Shown here: piece after piece, positions 6,006 through 30,603 of the stretch
Layout of the letters: every line of letters begins with the position of its first letter
Position numbering within the stretch: the stretch's first letter is position 1
Sequence record: MK373793.1
Reading direction: 5' to 3' (one strand)
Length of the DNA: 43,157 nucleotides
Origin: Escherichia phage vB_EcoS_MM01
Notes under the pieces: generated by a model
Seen by the model: only the letters and a program-made list of their open reading frames with translations
Databases searched by the model: none
What the model was told of the DNA's origin: nothing
Position numbers and translations under genes: made by a program

Positions 6006-7274
6006 ATGGTAAAAACAGACAGCTACGCCAATATCTTTCTTGGCGGTAGTGATGGCAGTGAGATTTACGGGAGTTTAAATAACCAGACGCCTTCAATGCT
6101 GGCTTCTCTTTATGCTGATAATGCGCTGGTTCGTCGAATTATTGACACAATCCCAGAAACAGCACTAGCGGCAGGATTCCACATTGATGGTATTGATGAC
6201 GAGCCTGCATTCTGGTCGCGCTGGGATGGTTTGGAAATGACGAAGAACATTAACGATGCATGGTCATGGGCCAGATTGTTTGGTGGTTCCGCAATTGTTG
6301 CTATCGTTAAGGACAATAGAGCGCTAACAAGTCCGGTCAGAGAAGGTGCCGAACTTGAAACGGTTCGCGTTTACGACCGCACGCAAGTAAAAGTACAGAC
6401 CCGCGAAGAGAATCCACGCAACCCACGTTTTGGCAAGCCACTGACCTATCGCATTACCACTAACGAAAGCGATATGTTCTATGACGTTCATTATAGCCGG
6501 ATTCACATCATCGATGGCGAGAGAGTGCCTAACGCAATGCGCCGACAAAATGATGGGTGGGGCCGCAGTGTGCTTTCCAGTGATATTCTCGACTCGATTA
6601 AGGATTACACCAACTGCGAGCGACTTGCTACACAATTACTGAGACGCAAGCAGCAGGCTGTGTGGAAGGCGAAGGGTCTGGCTGAGTTGTGCGATGATAG
6701 CGAAGGGTTTGGTGCTGCAAGATTGAGACTGGCACAGGTTGACAACAATAGCGGCGTAGGTCAAGCAATTGGTATTGATGCCGAATCTGAAGAGTACAGC
6801 GTTCTTAACTCAGATATTGGCGGTATTGATGCGTTCCTGGATAAGAAGTTTGACAGAATCGTTGCGCTGAGCGGCATTCATGAAATCATCCTGAAGAACA
6901 AGAACGTCGGTGGCGTATCATCTAGCCAGAACACAGCGCTTGAGACATTCCATAAGTTGATTGACCGTAAGCGCAATTCTGAACTACTGCCTATTCTTGA
7001 GTTCCTAATCCCGTTCATCGTAAACGCGGAAGAGTGGTCAGTTGAGTTTAACCCGTTGGCACAGGAATCAAGTAAGGATAAAGCAGAAGTTCTGGAAAAG
7101 AACGTAAACAGCATTGCCGCACTAATTGCAGCCGGAGCTATGGATACGAACGAAGCACGTGACACACTACGCACTATCGCACCAGAGATTAAGATTGGTG
7201 ATAATGATATTCAGGCCGAGGAATCGGAGTTAATTACAGAGACAGAGGTTGTTAATGAAGAAATTGCGATATGA
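6006..7274 (+). CDS. portal protein (putative)
   Basis: 422-aa ORF directly after terL; canonical gene order. Confidence 0.65.
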   Translation: MVKTDSYANIFLGGSDGSEIYGSLNNQTPSMLASLYADNALVRRIIDTIPETALAAGFHIDGIDDEPAFWSRWDGLEMTKNINDAWSWARLFGGSAIVAIVKDNRALTSPVREGAELETVRVYDRTQVKVQTREENPRNPRFGKPLTYRITTNESDMFYDVHYSRIHIIDGERVPNAMRRQNDGWGRSVLSSDILDSIKDYTNCERLATQLLRRKQQAVWKAKGLAELCDDSEGFGAARLRLAQVDNNSGVGQAIGIDAESEEYSVLNSDIGGIDAFLDKKFDRIVALSGIHEIILKNKNVGGVSSSQNTALETFHKLIDRKRNSELLPILEFLIPFIVNAEEWSVEFNPLAQESSKDKAEVLEKNVNSIAALIAAGAMDTNEARDTLRTIAPEIKIGDNDIQAEESELITETEVVNEEIAI

Positions 7275-8364
7275 CAGTGCGAAGGTGAAAGCCAGATTTG
7301 ATGAAAACGGCTTTCTGGTTGATACCCCGATTGTTGCGCGTGTCGGGGTGCAAACCTACTACCTTCCAGACGGCACAGAACGAAGAGAATTTAGACCAGC
7401 CTCAGAGGTATTTAAACCTGATTCTCTAGCAAGTTATCAGGGCAAGCCAATTACCTTAGGTCATGTGTTTGTTAACTCTGAGAATGCCAAAGAGGTAGTT
7501 GTTGGTGCGGTATCTGGGTCAGCTATGCGTGAGGACTCGAATGTCATTGTTCCTCTAACTGTTTACGACAAGGAATCCATCGAGAAGGCGAAATCCGGTA
7601 TTGCTGGTGAGTTATCTGTAGGCTACTCAACTGTTGATATTGATTCGAAGGGGTGGGGTAGCAATGAAACTGGCGAGTATAAGTTGGACGGAGAATACCA
7701 ATCACAGGACGAAATCCCTTCTGATTGGGTTAGATTCGACGCTCTGCAAACTGAAATCAAAGTAAATCACGTCGCACTTGTCTATCAAGGCCGCGCGGGA
7801 GTAGCCAAACTTAATTTTGACGCTCAGCAGGAAAACCCGTATACTGACAGCGTTGATTCTATTAAAGAGGACGTAAAAGAAATGGTTAAGATTAAACTCG
7901 ACGGCGCTCAGGAGTTTGAAATTGCTCCCGAAGTCGCCGCTCACATTGAAGCAGTTAAAGCTGACTCCGCAAAAGAAAAGGCAAAAGCTGATGCACTGGA
8001 AGCTGAGCGTGATGCGCTTAAAGCTAAAGTTGATGCAATGCCATCAGAAATCGAGAAAGCAGTTGCTAAGGCGAAAGCTGACGCAGACGCGCTCGCAGCT
8101 TTGGTTGCTGTTGCTGCTGAAGCTGGCGTTAAAGCTGATGGTCTGGATGCTAAAGGCATTAAAGTAGCTTACGTTAAAGAAGTCTCTGGCCTGGATGTTT
8201 CTGAGAAATCTGACGCGTATATTGATGCAGCGTTCGACATTGCCAAAGAATCTGATAAAATGGCTGAAGTTCGCAAGGCTACCGCAGCCTCTGATAAATC
8301 TGACAGCAAAGACGAAGTTAAGGTTTTGAACCCGCGCGCTCGTCTGGCTAAAATTAAAAAATAA
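7255..8364 (+). CDS. head scaffolding / prohead maturation protein
   Basis: internal ATG of track ORF 7249 (track start TTG); C-terminal third is Ala/Lys/Glu-rich coiled-coil typical of scaffolds. Confidence 0.5.
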   Translation: MKKLRYDSAKVKARFDENGFLVDTPIVARVGVQTYYLPDGTERREFRPASEVFKPDSLASYQGKPITLGHVFVNSENAKEVVVGAVSGSAMREDSNVIVPLTVYDKESIEKAKSGIAGELSVGYSTVDIDSKGWGSNETGEYKLDGEYQSQDEIPSDWVRFDALQTEIKVNHVALVYQGRAGVAKLNFDAQQENPYTDSVDSIKEDVKEMVKIKLDGAQEFEIAPEVAAHIEAVKADSAKEKAKADALEAERDALKAKVDAMPSEIEKAVAKAKADADALAALVAVAAEAGVKADGLDAKGIKVAYVKEVSGLDVSEKSDAYIDAAFDIAKESDKMAEVRKATAASDKSDSKDEVKVLNPRARLAKIKK

Positions 8365-8374
8365 GGAGTCCTAA

Positions 8375-8872
8375 ATGGCAATTCGTTCCGTAGCTCTGGC
8401 AGGCATGGTAGCTGATACTTCCCTGTATAATATTGATGGTGCTTGCGTAGTTGGTGGCTCTGCTGCAATTCCGGTTGGCACAGTAGTAACCGTTAGCCCT
8501 GATCCATTAATCGATGGTCACAAGGTTGTTATTGCTGGCGCATCCGCTACTCTCCCTGCTTATGGTGTGGTTGTTAAATCTCATTATGAAACTCCTGACG
8601 GTACCGCTAAAACTCAGGAAGCAGTTAACGTAATGACAAACGGCAGAATCTGGGCAAGAACAAACCTTTCTGCAAAGCCAACTTTCGGTAGCGCTGTTTT
8701 CGTCAATAGTTCTGGTCTTATTGTAGCTGGCCCAGCAAGTGACACCGTTTTCGATACTGGCTTTACCTTCGCTGGTGGTTTTGCTACTGCATACACCGCT
8801 AGTGCAAACCCAATCAAGCAAGATGAGTCTGTTGATGGCAACATCGTAGAGATTCAGGTTAAGCAGAAATAA
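8375..8872 (+). CDS. head-associated structural protein (decoration-like, putative)
   Basis: 165-aa Gly/Ala/Val-rich ORF between scaffold and capsid genes; function by position only. Confidence 0.35.
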   Translation: MAIRSVALAGMVADTSLYNIDGACVVGGSAAIPVGTVVTVSPDPLIDGHKVVIAGASATLPAYGVVVKSHYETPDGTAKTQEAVNVMTNGRIWARTNLSAKPTFGSAVFVNSSGLIVAGPASDTVFDTGFTFAGGFATAYTASANPIKQDESVDGNIVEIQVKQK

Positions 8873-8875
8873 AAA

Positions 8876-8896
8876 CAGGCCCTTAGGGGCCTTTTT
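8876..8896 (+). terminator. rho-independent terminator
   Basis: aggccc-ttag-gggcct hairpin plus T run. Confidence 0.6.
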
Positions 8897-8910: not shown

Positions 8911-9471
8911 ATGTTATTCGAAAAAGAAGTAGAAGTTGCGAACCTTGGTTATAATTCTGGTAATTCCCTTATTGATCAGGTTAATGAAGAATTATCAAAT
9001 CTTGTTGATTCAGGTTATAAATTTACATACAACTTCAGAAATGAATTGGATATTTCCTATTGGGAGATTGGTAATCAAAAGACAGGTCTAGTTGAATTAT
9101 CTGGTTTGGCAGTTAGGCATTTAGGGCTTTCAAAGAACGGTTTTAATGAGTTATCAGAGATTAAGATTTTCTCTTTTGAGTATGGCGTTGATTACTCTAC
9201 TGATGATGATATTGCTCGCATTACTGATGAAATTTTCGACAAAAAAGGGTACGTGCCATTATCTAGCAAGCTATTCAGTGCTACCATAGTTGATGAGTCA
9301 AACAAAACAAAACGCTCAGTATTGGAAGGTGGAAAGTATGTAACATACTATTCACCATCATACAAAAGAATTTTTATGTTGATAGCTGGGAAGCCAAAAA
9401 CAAAAGAACTAGAAACCAAAAAATCTGGATGGGCTTTGGTTAAGTATGAAGAAGTAGAAGCGCCAGAGTAA
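8911..9471 (+). CDS. orphan moron protein (186 aa), AT-rich
   Basis: ORF track; strong RBS; visibly lower GC than flanking head genes; bracketed by two terminators. Confidence 0.55.
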   Translation: MLFEKEVEVANLGYNSGNSLIDQVNEELSNLVDSGYKFTYNFRNELDISYWEIGNQKTGLVELSGLAVRHLGLSKNGFNELSEIKIFSFEYGVDYSTDDDIARITDEIFDKKGYVPLSSKLFSATIVDESNKTKRSVLEGGKYVTYYSPSYKRIFMLIAGKPKTKELETKKSGWALVKYEEVEAPE

Positions 9472-9476
9472 AATCA

Positions 9477-9499
9477 AACCTCCTTCGGGAGGTTTTTTA
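9477..9499 (+). terminator. rho-independent terminator
   Basis: acctcc-ttcg-ggaggt hairpin plus T6. Confidence 0.65.
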
Positions 9500-9554
9500 T
9501 TGCTAATTATCTGATACAATCATTAGGACTATTAAACAATATGGAGTAAATGAA

Positions 9555-11096
9555 ATGGCTTTAGAATTTAGGCAAATCCTTGCTGGTAACACAGCATCAC
9601 TTAGCCGTAAGGTGCTAGAGGCAATTGCGGAAGGTTGGCAGCCATTTGATAGAGTCCTGACCGGTACTGGATCTAATACCATTGGCATGGTTGTAGCCAA
9701 GGGAACCAATGCAGACATTACCGATTTCATGGTTCTTACTGCCACCAGTCGTCAAAAGCTAATTGATAGAGTAAACGATATCACTCACGAAGGTTGGGAG
9801 GTGTTTGGCGAACCGTCATCTGAGTCAAATCAGTTTGCAGTTGCGTTAACTAAAGGATTTCAGGGTACATCCGGTAGAGATGGAATGGCTGGCCCACAAG
9901 GTCCGCAAGGTCCGCGCGGAGAGGTTGGCCCAGAAGGTCCGCAGGGTCCAAAAGGTGACGATGGTACGCCTGGTGAAAAGGGTGAGCGTGGCGCTGTAGG
10001 TCCGCAAGGACCAATTGGCCCACAGGGCATTCAAGGTCCGCAAGGAATTCAAGGTCCAGCTGGCTTAAAGGGTGATAAGGGCGATAGGGGTGATGTTGGA
10101 CCGCAAGGGACGCAAGGATTAAAAGGTGATACTGGCGAGAAAGGAGACCCTGGCGAAGTCGGGCCTGCTGGTTTAACATTCCGTGGGCAATGGGTTCCTA
10201 GCACTGGTTATACAAAAGATGACACTGTAGTTTACGGCGGCTCAACCTACTTCGCAGTTAGCAACATTGCAGAAGATGAGGAACCTGGAGTATCACCTCT
10301 GTGGGTTGTTCTTGCCGCTCAGGGTACGAAAGGTGATAAGGGTGATAAGGGTGACCCTGGTGATATCGGTCCTCAAGGTGAAAAAGGAGAAACAGGACAG
10401 CAGGGCCCAAGAGGGGTTCAGGGGCAACAAGGTATTCAAGGTTTACCAGGCGAACAGGGGCCAAAAGGTGATCAAGGATTGCAAGGAATTACTGGACCAG
10501 CCGGTCCTCAAGGACCAAAAGGTGACACTGGACCTCAGGGTATTCAAGGTCCACAAGGGATTAGAGGGGTTGCTGGAGCGGTAGGACCACAAGGACCACA
10601 GGGAGAGAGGGGCGAAAAGGGCGATAAAGGAGAAAAAGGCGAAACTGGCGCAACCGGCCCACAGGGTCCAGCAGGTCAAAATAATACAAACAATCCAGTT
10701 TATACAACTCAACTTACCGTATCGACAAGCTACTCAGCTATAGCTATACCAAACAACCCTGGCATCTCTTTTTCAGTCAGAAGGGTTGGGAATAACATTG
10801 AGTACTCTTTTGTAGGCAACTCAATTGCAGGAAGGTATTTTGATGTTGAGGTTGTAAACTTTCCATCTGCTGACGTAGTTAAGAGATATCAGTCAAACCA
10901 CACAATTGCAGGAACTAGCAGGTATGTTGTAGGTGATCCTGCTGGTTATACTGGTGGTGGATATAAAAGAATTCAATTCTCAGCTAGAGATTGGGGAGAT
11001 AAAAACATTATAATGATTGATGTTTTTCACCTTCAGCGCCCAGCTGATACTAGTTTTAACATCGCAATTAGGATTGAGACATTCAAGCTGCCATAA
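9555..11096 (+). CDS. collagen-like repeat protein (putative head or tail fibre)
   Basis: 513 aa; two long Gly-X-Y blocks (approx. aa 107-196 and 248-360) flanking a globular insert, plus non-collagenous N- and C-terminal domains. Confidence 0.8.
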
Positions 11097-11174
11097 CATT
11101 AACGCCCGCCATTGCGCGGGCTTAAAACTCGTGTATAATGAACTCGTAAACTTGTTAACTAAAAGGATGATAAA

Positions 11175-12122
11175 ATGGCTATTAAGTTAGACGCCGAACA
11201 GGCTAAAATCACGGCTCACCTCGAGCAAATGGGCGTCGAAAAGGCTGATGCGGCTGGTATTTGGACCGTCAAGCAGCTTACCGAAACCCTCAAGCGTAAC
11301 TACGAGAAAGAATACCCGGATAACTCCGTTGTTAATATCTTCCCTGTAAGTAACGAAATCCCAAGTCACGCAAAATACTTTGAATACCCGGAATTCGATG
11401 GCGTAGGTATCGCTCAGATTATCGCTGATTACTCTGATGACCTGCCGCTGGTTGATGCTTTCATGACTGAGAAGCAAGGCAAAGTTTTCCGCTTCGGTAA
11501 CGCCTTCCTGGTGTCCGTTGATGAAATCAAAGCTGGTGCTGCAACTGGTCAGCCTCTGCAATCCCGCAAACAGGCTCTGGCATTTGAGGCTCACGACAAC
11601 CTGTTGGATAAACTTGTTTGGCAAGGTTCTACGCCTCATGGCATTACCAGCGTATTCAACGCGCCTAACGTAAACCAGATTACTGCTAATGCTAGTGGCT
11701 GGACTGATGCCAAGAACGCGGTTGATGACATTACCTCAATGATTGATGCTGTTGAAATCGCTACCCAGGGCATTCACCATGTAACTGACATCATTCTTCC
11801 GGCATCCGCTCGTCGAGTAATGCAGGGTCTGGTTGCTGGGACTACCATTAGTTACGGTGAACTGTTTACTCGTAACAACCCTGGCCTTACCATTCGTTAC
11901 CTTCAGTTCCTGGATAACTACGATGGCTCAGGCGGTAAGGCGGCTCTGGCATTTGAGAAAGATCCTTTGAACCTCAGCATTGAGATTCCGGAAGCGACCA
12001 ATGTACTCCCTGGTCAACCGAAGGATTTGCACTTCAAGTACCCAGTCACCTCTAAGTCTACTGGTCTGGTTATCTACCGACCGCTGACTGTATCTGTACT
12101 GAAAGGCATTACCTACCCTTAA
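11175..12122 (+). CDS. major capsid protein (putative)
   Basis: 315-aa ORF following scaffold in the head module; strong RBS; followed by strong terminator. Confidence 0.6.
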   Translation: MAIKLDAEQAKITAHLEQMGVEKADAAGIWTVKQLTETLKRNYEKEYPDNSVVNIFPVSNEIPSHAKYFEYPEFDGVGIAQIIADYSDDLPLVDAFMTEKQGKVFRFGNAFLVSVDEIKAGAATGQPLQSRKQALAFEAHDNLLDKLVWQGSTPHGITSVFNAPNVNQITANASGWTDAKNAVDDITSMIDAVEIATQGIHHVTDIILPASARRVMQGLVAGTTISYGELFTRNNPGLTIRYLQFLDNYDGSGGKAALAFEKDPLNLSIEIPEATNVLPGQPKDLHFKYPVTSKSTGLVIYRPLTVSVLKGITYP

Positions 12123-12128
12123 TAAATC

Positions 12129-12150
12129 GCCCTCTTCGGAGGGCTTTTTT
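12129..12150 (+). terminator. rho-independent terminator
   Basis: gccctc-ttcg-gagggc hairpin plus T6. Confidence 0.65.
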
Positions 12151-12467: not shown

Positions 12468-12489
12468 GGGCGCTTCGGCGTCCTTTTTT
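12468..12489 (+). terminator. rho-independent terminator
   Basis: gggcgc-ttcg-gcgtcc hairpin plus T6. Confidence 0.55.
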
Positions 12490-29085: not shown

Positions 29086-30603
29086 TCACATATTTACACG
29101 AACGGAAACAAAAGAATCTTTTGGTATGTCTATTGGGTCACCATCACTATATCCATCAATCTTGTTTGATGCGAAAGCTGGAGAGACTTCATGAACTCTG
29201 TGGTATGTCTTTAATTTTATTGACCCGTCCTCATTAACAGAGTAATCAATCCATATTCTTGGTTGCTTGTTTATGTCAACTGGAACCTCAAAGCCTCCAT
29301 CAACACCACCCCAGGCGGCGTCGGAGTTAAGGCCTGTGCATCCAGATATCAAATAAACACCTTCAGAAATCCTCTCAACCTCACACCCCTCTGCTTCTGA
29401 GCTAATTTCAAAACTACCATCACCAAAAACCTTAACTATTGGTGAGGCTATCTTAATAAATCCATTTGAGTCGACCGTTGTATTTAAATCTCTTACGAAA
29501 AAATCCCTCCAGTCTGTTAGTCTAGCTGGATTATCGAATCTCTGCCTAAATCTGGGTGCGCCCTCTGTTATTGTTGAGAATCCAATTTGACTGTAATTAC
29601 CTGAAAGACCATTCTCTGCTATTGTCATTACCTCAGCGTAAGGGTATGGAGCGCCATTACCTCCCGGATAAGGTGATGAGTCTGAGGAGTAAAAACCAAT
29701 GCCACTCCTCATTGGCGTCGATCCATAAGCCACCGTTGCTGGATGCTTTGTATACATAGAGTTGATGTTATTTGATGCTTCAACATCTGTTGTAGCCCCA
29801 GTTCCACCACTGATTAAAGGTAAGGCAATTCTTTCTTGGGATGGATTGTAAAAGTAACCCCAGTCGGCCTCCCCAACGAAAAATTTATAATTACCACTAC
29901 CAGAGTCGACGTATGTTGTTTCCTGGCCCTGTTCAAACCTTGAAACTAAATTATTAACCTCTGCTTTTGAATAAACCTCAATATTTGTCCTTGCTAGTGG
30001 TTTGTCTAAGATATCCGATAAAGCCCTGTCAACTCTTAGGAGGTTTGATGCATTAACAGATGCCGCGCTATCAGCTGCCTCTGCTGCTGAAGCTGCTGCT
30101 GCATTACTGTCAGATAATGCACTTGCTGCGCTTGCAGCTGCTGCATCTTTATCGGCAGAAACAATAGCCCTATCAGCTGAAACCTGGGCAGCATCAGTAG
30201 CTACTTGCTGAAATTGAGCGTTTACTGTATTTATGCTTTGCTGAAATTCATCAGCATCAAAGTCATTAAAAGCATCTACAGCGGATGCAACTTCAGTTTC
30301 ACGTGACTGATAGTAACGAAGGGTTTCTGCAACATCCTGAGCCAAACCCTGAACAGTAATTCCATCGTGAGCAAGAATCGCGTAACCAGTGCCAGCCGGA
30401 ACAGTTTCAGAATTAGGGTTATAAACATTAATCTGCGTATCGCTGATAATCTCTGAGATGGTGTAAATTTTTACTGGTTCAGTTTTAAATACAATGGTGG
30501 CGCCTACGCGAATCAGTGTAAGAGGCGCCTTCCATGATGTCCCTACGCCAGTAACCTCGCCATTTGCAGCTAGTGAAGCTGTTCCTAAGTCATAAATTGC
30601 CAT
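29086..30603 (-). CDS. tail fibre protein (putative)
   Basis: 505 aa; Ala/Ser-rich central segment and Gly/Ser-rich C-terminal domain; assignment by composition. Confidence 0.45.
   Translation of the reverse strand: MAIYDLGTASLAANGEVTGVGTSWKAPLTLIRVGATIVFKTEPVKIYTISEIISDTQINVYNPNSETVPAGTGYAILAHDGITVQGLAQDVAETLRYYQSRETEVASAVDAFNDFDADEFQQSINTVNAQFQQVATDAAQVSADRAIVSADKDAAAASAASALSDSNAAAASAAEAADSAASVNASNLLRVDRALSDILDKPLARTNIEVYSKAEVNNLVSRFEQGQETTYVDSGSGNYKFFVGEADWGYFYNPSQERIALPLISGGTGATTDVEASNNINSMYTKHPATVAYGSTPMRSGIGFYSSDSSPYPGGNGAPYPYAEVMTIAENGLSGNYSQIGFSTITEGAPRFRQRFDNPARLTDWRDFFVRDLNTTVDSNGFIKIASPIVKVFGDGSFEISSEAEGCEVERISEGVYLISGCTGLNSDAAWGGVDGGFEVPVDINKQPRIWIDYSVNEDGSIKLKTYHRVHEVSPAFASNKIDGYSDGDPIDIPKDSFVSVRVNM

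Follow-up and report, generated by a model that had tools for sequence, protein, structure and literature searches.

A candidate head fibre with a tandem DUF1737 anchor and a long collagen stalk in a T1-like Escherichia coli phage

Where in the virion does a phage protein with a collagen stalk belong when its gene lies among the head genes? The question is raised by Escherichia phage vB_EcoS_MM01 (sequence record MK373793.1), a T1-like E. coli siphophage (Rogunavirinae, Drexlerviridae). The DNA analyzed is a stretch of 43,157 nucleotides (nt), hereafter the window. The gene in question encodes a protein of 513 amino acids (aa), hereafter the collagen protein, which consists of an N-terminus of 100 aa, a run of Gly-X-Y triplets, a 48-aa insert, another Gly-X-Y run and a C-terminus of 137 aa (Table 1). 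The nearest relative is Phagiculus (Drexlerviridae, Rogunavirinae), whose protein WWD11008 shows 98% aa identity to the collagen protein; the homologues of UDF157lw and e4/1c show 80% and 68%. An earlier interpretation of the same DNA, made from its letters without database searches (the sequence-only reading), had proposed a head fibre rather than a tail fibre. Our results favour the same answer, and we infer that the collagen protein is probably a head fibre and not a tail fibre: its DUF1737 anchor is homologous to that of phi24B gp84, a sibling protein (P0130) matches the head fibre family PF11133, the same slot in phage T1 is occupied by the capsid-bound gp48, and the tail fibre is encoded separately.

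The evidence from the N-terminus came from sequence profiles. In the full protein, Pfam recognized DUF1737 (PF08410) at aa 60–92, with 31.1 bits against a gathering score of 24. When the two halves of the N-terminus were scanned singly, aa 1–53 (E=2.3e-3, 18.2 bits) and aa 54–104 (E=5.8e-5, 23.3 bits) both scored just under that threshold; in the homologue from phage Rogue1, it is the first half that scores with DUF1737. A BLASTP comparison of one half with the other found no match, so a profile-profile comparison was needed. Using profiles built from 17 diverse N-termini (phage records and metagenomes), hhalign aligned unit 1 with unit 2 at 97.6% probability (E=2.6e-12, 45 of ~50 columns), with a score of 53, while the best of 60 column-shuffled controls reached 16.6. 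The flanking domains were modelled as monomers with AlphaFold2 (AF2). The model of the anchor, based on the 17-sequence alignment, had a predicted local distance difference test score (pLDDT) of 91.3 and a predicted template modelling score of 0.80, and contained two beta-alpha-beta-beta units: strand 4–10, helix 13–25 and strands 29–36 and 43–49 in the first, and strand 54–63, helix 66–77 and strands 82–90 and 93–102 in the second. The DUF1737 fold, one helix with three antiparallel strands, is thus present in the model. Judged from these comparisons, two DUF1737 units in tandem make up the N-terminus.

Guidance on what such a unit may do comes from the Shiga toxin (Stx) phage phi24B. Residues 2–57 of its esterase gp84, a DUF1737 domain, form a hexamer on the central pore of the hexon, as cryo-electron microscopy (cryo-EM) showed, and the authors of the preprint renamed DUF1737 a capsid-binding domain (10.64898/2026.04.10.717836). 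The unit-1 profile aligned with residues 1–70 of gp84 (vb_24B_21) at 97.4% probability in hhalign, over 50 columns covering gp84 residues 1–55, and the two share the motif EGWQPYGS, or EGWQP(Y/F). The unit-2 profile reached 93.8%, and the comparison with gp84 by hmmsearch gave 25.8 bits. Like the collagen protein, phi24B gp84 (a NanS-p esterase) has a homologous PF08410 anchor at the N-terminus followed by a large displayed cargo. The two differ in that gp84 has one DUF1737 unit per chain and six chains per hexon, whereas the collagen protein has two units per chain; the cargo of gp84 is an esterase that is cleaved off, while that of the collagen protein is collagen and trimeric by prediction. 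The capsid of phi24B is that of a T=9 podovirus and that of our phage is T1-type (T=7 in T1 itself), and the gp84 gene lies outside the head cluster, whereas the collagen gene adjoins the capsid gene.

Structural comparison against BFVD returned the Rogue1, Jk06, phiJLA23 and BECP10 homologues as full-length matches of the anchor, and small single-domain DUF1737 proteins as half-length matches (target-normalized TM scores 0.30–0.86). In phmmer searches, neither the N-terminal nor the C-terminal domain had more than chance-level matches among PDB sequences. A word-indexed protein search with the 104-aa anchor came back empty; full-length and exhaustive profile searches did find homologues. The anchor module was found in 34 of 50,697 phage records, all of them Drexlerviridae, and in 88 representatives among 1.84 billion proteins. 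Two distant tandem-anchor proteins, P0147 (912 aa) and P0157 (893 aa), carry C-terminal regions of ~800 aa, which in P0147 look beta-helix-like by eye and in P0157 have a weak Ig_3 match; these two may be capsid-displayed enzymes or adhesins. Further proteins with the tandem anchor have Gly-rich linkers, followed by a cargo that appears fibrous or coiled-coil-like by eye.

The genomic slot points in the same direction as the anchor. The sequence-only reading had placed the gene between scaffold/decoration and major capsid genes, and the ORF list (open reading frames), Pfam and PHROG bear this out: the order in the window is terminase, portal, protease/scaffold, cement, an ORF of 186 aa, collagen gene and major capsid gene. 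The succession of cement, variable gene(s), collagen/anchor gene and capsid is conserved in Rogunavirinae and Braunvirinae. In T1, the slot between the cement gene (gp49) and the capsid gene (gp47) encodes gp48. Cryo-EM located gp49 at 3-fold and quasi-3-fold sites and showed gp48 to be capsid-bound, its N-terminus being cement-like and its outward C-terminus flexible and unresolved (PMC11945409); this C-terminus corresponds to a Big_2 immunoglobulin (Ig)-like domain. On a metagenomic contig (L016), the same slot encodes P0130, which has the same tandem anchor and a C-terminus matching PF11133, the phi29 head fibre family (35 bits, gathering score 24.6); a Pfam scan of the collagen protein of the window gave no PF11133 match. 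In the T4-like phages VR26 and Kosakonia phage 305, the collagen homologue lies within the gp24-hoc-inh head accessory region.

In some Drexlerviridae, the cement-to-capsid slot also holds a 430-aa GDSL/SGNH esterase (Sd1 gp46, L014:1127-2419; AugustePiccard bas01_0009, L003:4629-5918; and L016:4621-5913), which is annotated as “head outer capsid protein” in Bas01 and recalls the capsid-bound esterase gp84 of phi24B. The window does not have this gene. A cement-like N-terminus, as in T1 gp48, was considered for Sd1 gp46 and Bas01_0009 and rejected, as BLASTP found no similarity; a Pfam scan of the two proteins gave no DUF1737 match. The first ~170 aa are, by these searches, unlike both cement and DUF1737.

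The stalk itself was much as the sequence-only reading had described it, two Gly-X-Y blocks separated by an insert, with 228 residues (76 triplets), slightly above its estimate of about 200. Pfam Collagen (PF01391) matched the 513-aa protein with E=2.1e-36, which excludes chance. The X position is Pro in 25 of the 76 triplets, and the Y position Gln in 26. Lengths given for the stalk were estimated at 0.286 nm per residue. Among isolates, the number of triplets ranges from 10 to 76 within Rogunavirus. Blocks 1 and 2 have 36 and 40 triplets in the window, Phagiculus and UDF157lw, 36 and 39 in e4/1c, 36 and 34 in AN_ECEAS, 37 and 29 in AugustePiccard and RobRod40, 33 and 29 in Rogue1 (62 in total), and 33 and 27 in Sd1. 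BECP10 and Jk06 have a single run, of 14 and 10 triplets, in short natural forms of 278–282 aa without the insert (L019:1801-2649 and L020:1801-2637). The 278-aa protein of Jk06 corresponds to the 481-aa protein of Rogue1 minus an in-frame deletion from block 1 into block 2. In AHS24 (L015:2501-3386), a frameshift in a GDKGDKG run has led to the annotation of two ORFs; it may be real or a sequencing error. Phage Rtp has no collagen gene, rtp26 being followed by rtp27, and the gene is therefore dispensable.

The repetitive DNA had been taken for a likely hotspot of repeat-number variation. Repeat number does vary strongly, but the DNA repeats are degenerate (60–78% nucleotide identity) and near-perfect only as 9-bp units in 2–4 copies. 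Slippage of perfect tandem repeats was accordingly rejected as the main source of length variation: the arrays are just 9 bp × 2–4 copies, and the variants are large in-frame block deletions or swaps. Length variation thus stems mainly from recombination or deletion between blocks.

The insert between the blocks (aa 209–256) has the motif GLTFRGxW...Y..DD.V.Y.GSTYFA...W..LA.QG and weakly resembles CBM_5_12 (PF02839) with E=1.4e-4 and 22.3 bits, under the 26.2 gathering score, which makes carbohydrate binding a mere lead; PF02839 is a precomputed match in many collagen homologues of a more distant kind. The insert is globular, as the sequence-only reading had called it, and is kept in all long homologues, including those of myoviruses and of a podovirus, and these share one plan: anchor, collagen, 48-aa aromatic insert, collagen and a beta-rich head of ~135–155 aa. 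Distinct N- and C-terminal domains, as the sequence-only reading had them, are reflected in confident AF2 models (pLDDT 91 and 87). The C-terminal domain did not prove to be a TNF-like jelly-roll trimerization head of the C1q/BclA type.

Phages that are otherwise close can differ in the head, whose sequences form several very divergent types, and nucleotide comparisons along the gene show a mosaic. By sliding identity, the UDF157lw gene is unrelated over the anchor and then 82–97% identical from the first triplet on, and the e4/1c gene is more than 90% identical up to the end of block 2 and ~40% afterwards. Gene W70_129 of W70, a 137-kb myovirus of the Vequintavirinae, is 95–98% identical over the last ~460 nt (10635–11096 of the window); elsewhere in the gene the identity is mostly at or below ~55%, rising to 65% and 72% in two windows of 60 nt. 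It is near nt 1020–1080 of the gene that the identity to e4/1c falls and that to W70 rises. These identities amount to a recent exchange of the fibre head between the siphovirus and the myovirus W70, and its junction lies within the collagen repeat. Podovirus PAS7 and Kosakonia phage 305 have the same head type, with aa identities of 88% and 55%, and it is spread over phages of Vequintavirinae, Autographiviridae and Tevenvirinae. The N-termini of the W70, PAS7 and Kosakonia 305 proteins are quite different from the DUF1737 anchor. An anchor restricted to one lineage together with a widely shared distal head is the pattern expected of a lineage-specific anchor with a promiscuous ligand-binding tip.

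In the myovirus homologues of W70 (L004:5849-7432), VR26 (L006:5846-7372) and Kosakonia 305 (L007:5993-7402), as well as in the metagenomic P0003, a short N-terminal motif, EGVFYGxxFYDL, replaces the DUF1737 anchor. The T4-like VR26 and Kosakonia 305 also have a conserved gene of ~285 aa (41% identity) 3’ of the collagen homologue, possibly encoding an adaptor.

On this basis we propose that the gene product would be an accessory, non-essential head fibre. Three chains, with the C-terminal head as the probable nucleus, would zip together as a collagen triple helix to give a stalk with segments of ~31 nm and ~34 nm, a small aromatic-rich knob between them and a beta-sandwich head at the end. 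The trimer would present 3 × 2 = 6 DUF1737 units, which may form a ring on the central pore of the hexon as six single-domain subunits do in phi24B, so that the tandem duplication would let a trimeric fibre sit on a quasi-6-fold site and resolve the mismatch between 3-fold and 6-fold symmetry. As cement trimers fill the 3-fold sites of a T1-type T=7 capsid, its 60 hexon centres are free. The ~65-nm fibre would exceed the diameter of the capsid, and its distal knob and head would most likely bind surface carbohydrate of the host or the gut environment, weakly and reversibly. Such binding could make encounters more frequent ahead of receptor engagement by the tail, or favour retention in mucus. 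An adsorption-aid role has been proposed for the fibres of phi29, SPP1 gp12, T4 Hoc and T5 pb10 (PMC7602432). The collagen blocks would serve as recombination linkers, allowing anchor, stalk length and distal head to be swapped independently. In its fullest form the proposal is tentative, and we hold it more doubtful than not: the head as a second adsorption organelle, with up to 60 fibres of ~65 nm on hexon centres through a pseudo-hexameric ring of duplicated DUF1737, a way round the symmetry mismatch not described before, and with distal heads traded directly with the fibre genes of myoviruses and podoviruses, so that modules of specificity for host surface or mucus would pass from head to tail, or back, among unrelated phages.

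Several points weigh against a head fibre of this design. The link between DUF1737 and the capsid comes from a single preprint, on another capsid protein family and a T=9 podovirus, and no aromatic residue in the aligned loop of the collagen protein obviously corresponds to Tyr42, the anchoring “tooth” of phi24B. Foldseek found nothing significant for the anchor in the PDB, the best hit (E=0.12) being ACT/ferredoxin-like and the phi24B model apparently absent from the PDB copy searched, so it is sequence profiles and BFVD predictions that carry the structural link. The ring of six units is pure inference, and the hints of carbohydrate binding are the sub-threshold CBM_5_12 match and generic beta-sandwich similarities. 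In the literature on Drexlerviridae, Rogunavirus, T1-like phages, Sd1/Sf12 and VR7 we found no virion proteomics or imaging of the collagen protein, and the one proteomics data set that we found for relatives, that of the AHP24 group (seven gel bands), did not include it; those phages carry a short or frameshifted version. A cryo-EM paper on Sf11 was set aside as a source of virion data, as it concerns an unrelated siphophage.

Two further points are those that a tail location would explain. The protein could be a second (side or accessory) tail fibre, its stalk and tip acting at the tail tip or baseplate and its N-terminus docking to a tail protein. Collagen-like stalks are common in phage tail fibres, and tblastn matches include hundreds of records from Stx phages and mycobacteriophages; the family is labelled “tail fiber” in PHROG (phrog_5073) and in several GenBank records, and the stalk and head module adjoins the tail-fibre gene in W70 and lies near the tailspike in PAS7. 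However, the N-termini of the W70 and PAS7 proteins are different, so their gene locations are uninformative about the anchor studied here, and the labels were apparently carried over from the collagen repeat, the same N-terminal module being also labelled “DNA polymerase”. The N-terminus is a DUF1737 module rather than an Stf, gpJ or Dit-docking domain, and the collagen protein has neither the tail-docking N-terminus nor the locus of lambda Stf and T1 gp26. Its gene lies between cement and capsid, with the neck module separating it from the tail genes. The window also encodes a J-type central fibre and a canonical lateral tail fibre, whose gene adjoins the primase, as it does in T1, and whose N-terminal anchor is conserved (family phrog_1591, in which the N-terminal 1–187 is common to many fibre PHROGs). 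Since this lateral fibre is present, the collagen protein is not the standard side fibre of the phage, and we consider a tail location unlikely.

Somewhat less probable still is a whisker of the neck or collar, with a role like that of T4 fibritin in assembly or in sensing the environment at the portal-neck region. The protein is predicted to be trimeric and fibrous and is encoded among head and neck genes, the 6- and 12-fold rings of T1-type necks could also suit six DUF1737 units, and icosahedral averaging in cryo-EM would miss such a whisker. Yet the sole experimental placement of DUF1737, in the phi24B preprint, is at hexon centres, the other occupants of the slot (T1 gp48 and the phi29-head-fibre-like sibling) are capsid-shell proteins, and neither Pfam nor PDB sequence searches revealed similarity to fibritin. 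We give very little credence to a non-virion moron, a collagen-like protein freed at lysis or displayed by the host for adhesion, biofilm formation or immune mimicry. The gene is accessory (Rtp and T1 lack it, and it is truncated in Jk06 and AHS24) and bracketed by hairpins like an independent cassette, and its product went unseen in the AHP24-group proteomics; but neighbouring head genes are likewise bracketed by hairpins, the gene is part of the late structural operon, reads in the same direction and has a good ribosome-binding site, and the N-terminal domain has a capsid-binding homologue and by eye is not hydrophobic, with no obvious signal peptide. A head fibre accounts best for the anchor and the slot, and remains the answer we consider probable.

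The elements of such a head fibre have counterparts in known systems. In phage SPP1, the gene for gp12 lies between the scaffold and major capsid genes, and gp12 is a protein of ~6.6 kDa and ~64 aa with ~8 triplets, having neither a DUF1737 anchor nor a distal globular domain. In comparison with the tiny gp12, the collagen protein is built very differently, with 513 aa and 76 triplets, a knob within the stalk and a beta-sandwich as its head; by Gly-X-Y content and synteny, the two have in common the collagen repeat and a capsid-adjacent gene. SPP1 gp12 is a collagen-like trimer at hexon centres (quasi-6-fold), with a proposed role in host adhesion (Zairi et al. 2014 JBC; White et al. 2012; summarized in PMC7602432). 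The head fibre of phi29, gp8.5 (PF11133), is trimeric and dispensable (Xiang & Rossmann 2011) and is thought to aid ordered attachment to the cell wall (PMC7602432); unlike the collagen protein, it has a stalk of helix-turn-helix supercoil and an N-terminal base of its own, and it sits at quasi-3-fold sites. T1 gp48 shares with the collagen protein the slot and the virus family and is N-terminally anchored to the capsid with a flexible C-terminus, but its anchor is a paralogue of the cement protein that stands in for one gp49 in 60 heterotrimers located at quasi-3-fold sites (PMC11945409), its cargo is Big_2, and it has no DUF1737 and no collagen. Side tail fibres of enterohaemorrhagic E. coli (EHEC) prophages (Ghosh et al. 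2012, PMC3368898) and proteins of the BclA/C1q type have, as here, Gly-X-Y stalks that lack hydroxyproline and abound in Pro, Gln and charge, with trimerizing flanks; the collagen regions cross-match in tblastn.

Table 1. Features of the collagen gene and related genes of the window
Feature	Position	Strand	Basis
Protease/scaffold gene	7249-8364		
Capsid cement protein (trimer sites), upstream neighbour	8375..8872	+	PF22758 E=1e-24; 41% identical to T1 gp49
186-aa ORF between cement and collagen genes	8911-9471	+	ORF list
GGAG ribosome-binding motif, 8 nt 5’ of ATG	9543..9546	+	Upstream sequence
Collagen-stalked fibre protein gene (putative), 513 aa	9555..11096 (stop codon included)	+	ORF list; ATG start; full-length phrog_5073 match
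DUF1737-like unit 1 (aa 1-52), beta-alpha-beta-beta; proposed capsid-binding anchor	9555..9710	+	Pfam, hhalign, AF2
DUF1737-like unit 2 (aa 53-100), tandem duplicate of unit 1	9711..9854	+	Pfam, hhalign, AF2
Collagen block 1, 36 unbroken Gly-X-Y triplets (aa 101-208), ~31 nm if triple-helical	9855..10178	+	
Conserved 48-aa insert (aa 209-256), weakly CBM_5_12-like, aromatic-rich	10179..10322	+	Pfam, homologue alignment
Collagen block 2, 40 unbroken Gly-X-Y triplets (aa 257-376), ~34 nm if triple-helical; 3’ end a recombination junction	10323..10682	+	
C-terminal beta-sandwich, swappable head at the distal end (aa 377-513); may bind a ligand and nucleate the trimer	10683..11093	+	
GC-rich hairpin GCCCGCCATTGCGCGGGC directly 3’ of the collagen stop, then TATAAT-like box, then capsid gene	11104..11121	+	Hairpin scan (reported on minus strand)
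Major capsid protein, HK97 fold, T1 gp47 family; proposed binding partner	11175..12122	+	PF09950 E=4.5e-37; phrog_264
Canonical lateral tail fibre gene, adjoining primase as in T1	29086..30603	-	phrog_1591 E=1e-113; layout matches T1 ST26/ST24

Around the collagen gene, GC-rich hairpins were found 3’ of nearly all genes of the head region (8877–8892, 9476–9495, 11104–11121, 12129–12144 and 12468–12483). Terminator-like sites numbered 10, compared with 3.8 expected, and the annotated terminators of T1 show a pattern similar to that of these hairpins, which suggests graded read-through control of structural protein dosage. The first two, which are terminator-like, flank the 186-aa ORF. This ORF had no match in Pfam or PHROG, and its likeness to the ORFs that e4/1c and RobRod40 have in this slot is confined to the C-terminal tail; it looks like a variable cassette within the head operon. 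Upstream, the portal gene (6006–7274) runs directly into the protease/scaffold gene. The MuF-like “head morphogenesis” gene present between portal and protease in T1, Rogue1, e4/1c and UDF157lw is missing from the window, and likewise from Phagiculus and AugustePiccard. ORFs on the minus strand within the collagen gene are probably by-products of its repetitive Gly-codon DNA.

The tandem DUF1737 anchor is labelled “DNA polymerase (I)” in phrog_22681 and in the records of Jk06, phiKP26, C119, phiJLA23 and AHS24 RefSeq, evidently an annotation error that has spread into a PHROG family. Misannotation of the collagen protein's family is systematic. Collagen-like decoration of hexons (SPP1 gp12), trimeric head fibres (phi29) and capsid anchoring by DUF1737 (phi24B preprint) are each already known; their union in one protein, where a long collagen stalk with an interruption joins a tandem anchor to an exchangeable beta-sandwich head, appears undescribed, and no paper describing the collagen protein was found in the literature on Drexlerviridae, Rogunavirus and T1-like phages, Sd1/Sf12 and VR7.

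If our reading of the collagen protein as a head fibre is right, a Drexlerviridae family now labelled “tail fiber”, “DNA polymerase I” or “hypothetical” would have to be re-annotated as head fibres, and capsid binding by DUF1737 would hold for two virus families and two capsid types. The comparison with phi24B would then suggest a rule by which a single DUF1737 unit serves monomeric cargo and a tandem pair trimeric cargo, and the tandem anchor could provide a high-copy capsid display handle for engineering T1-like phages. The collagen gene is carried by O157 phages that are phage-therapy candidates (UDF157lw, e4/1c and the AHP24 group), and the reading would bear on host-range prediction and on the annotation of receptor-binding proteins (“RBP”) in such candidates. 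It would also mean that adhesin heads move between the head fibres and the tail-associated fibres of unrelated E. coli phages.

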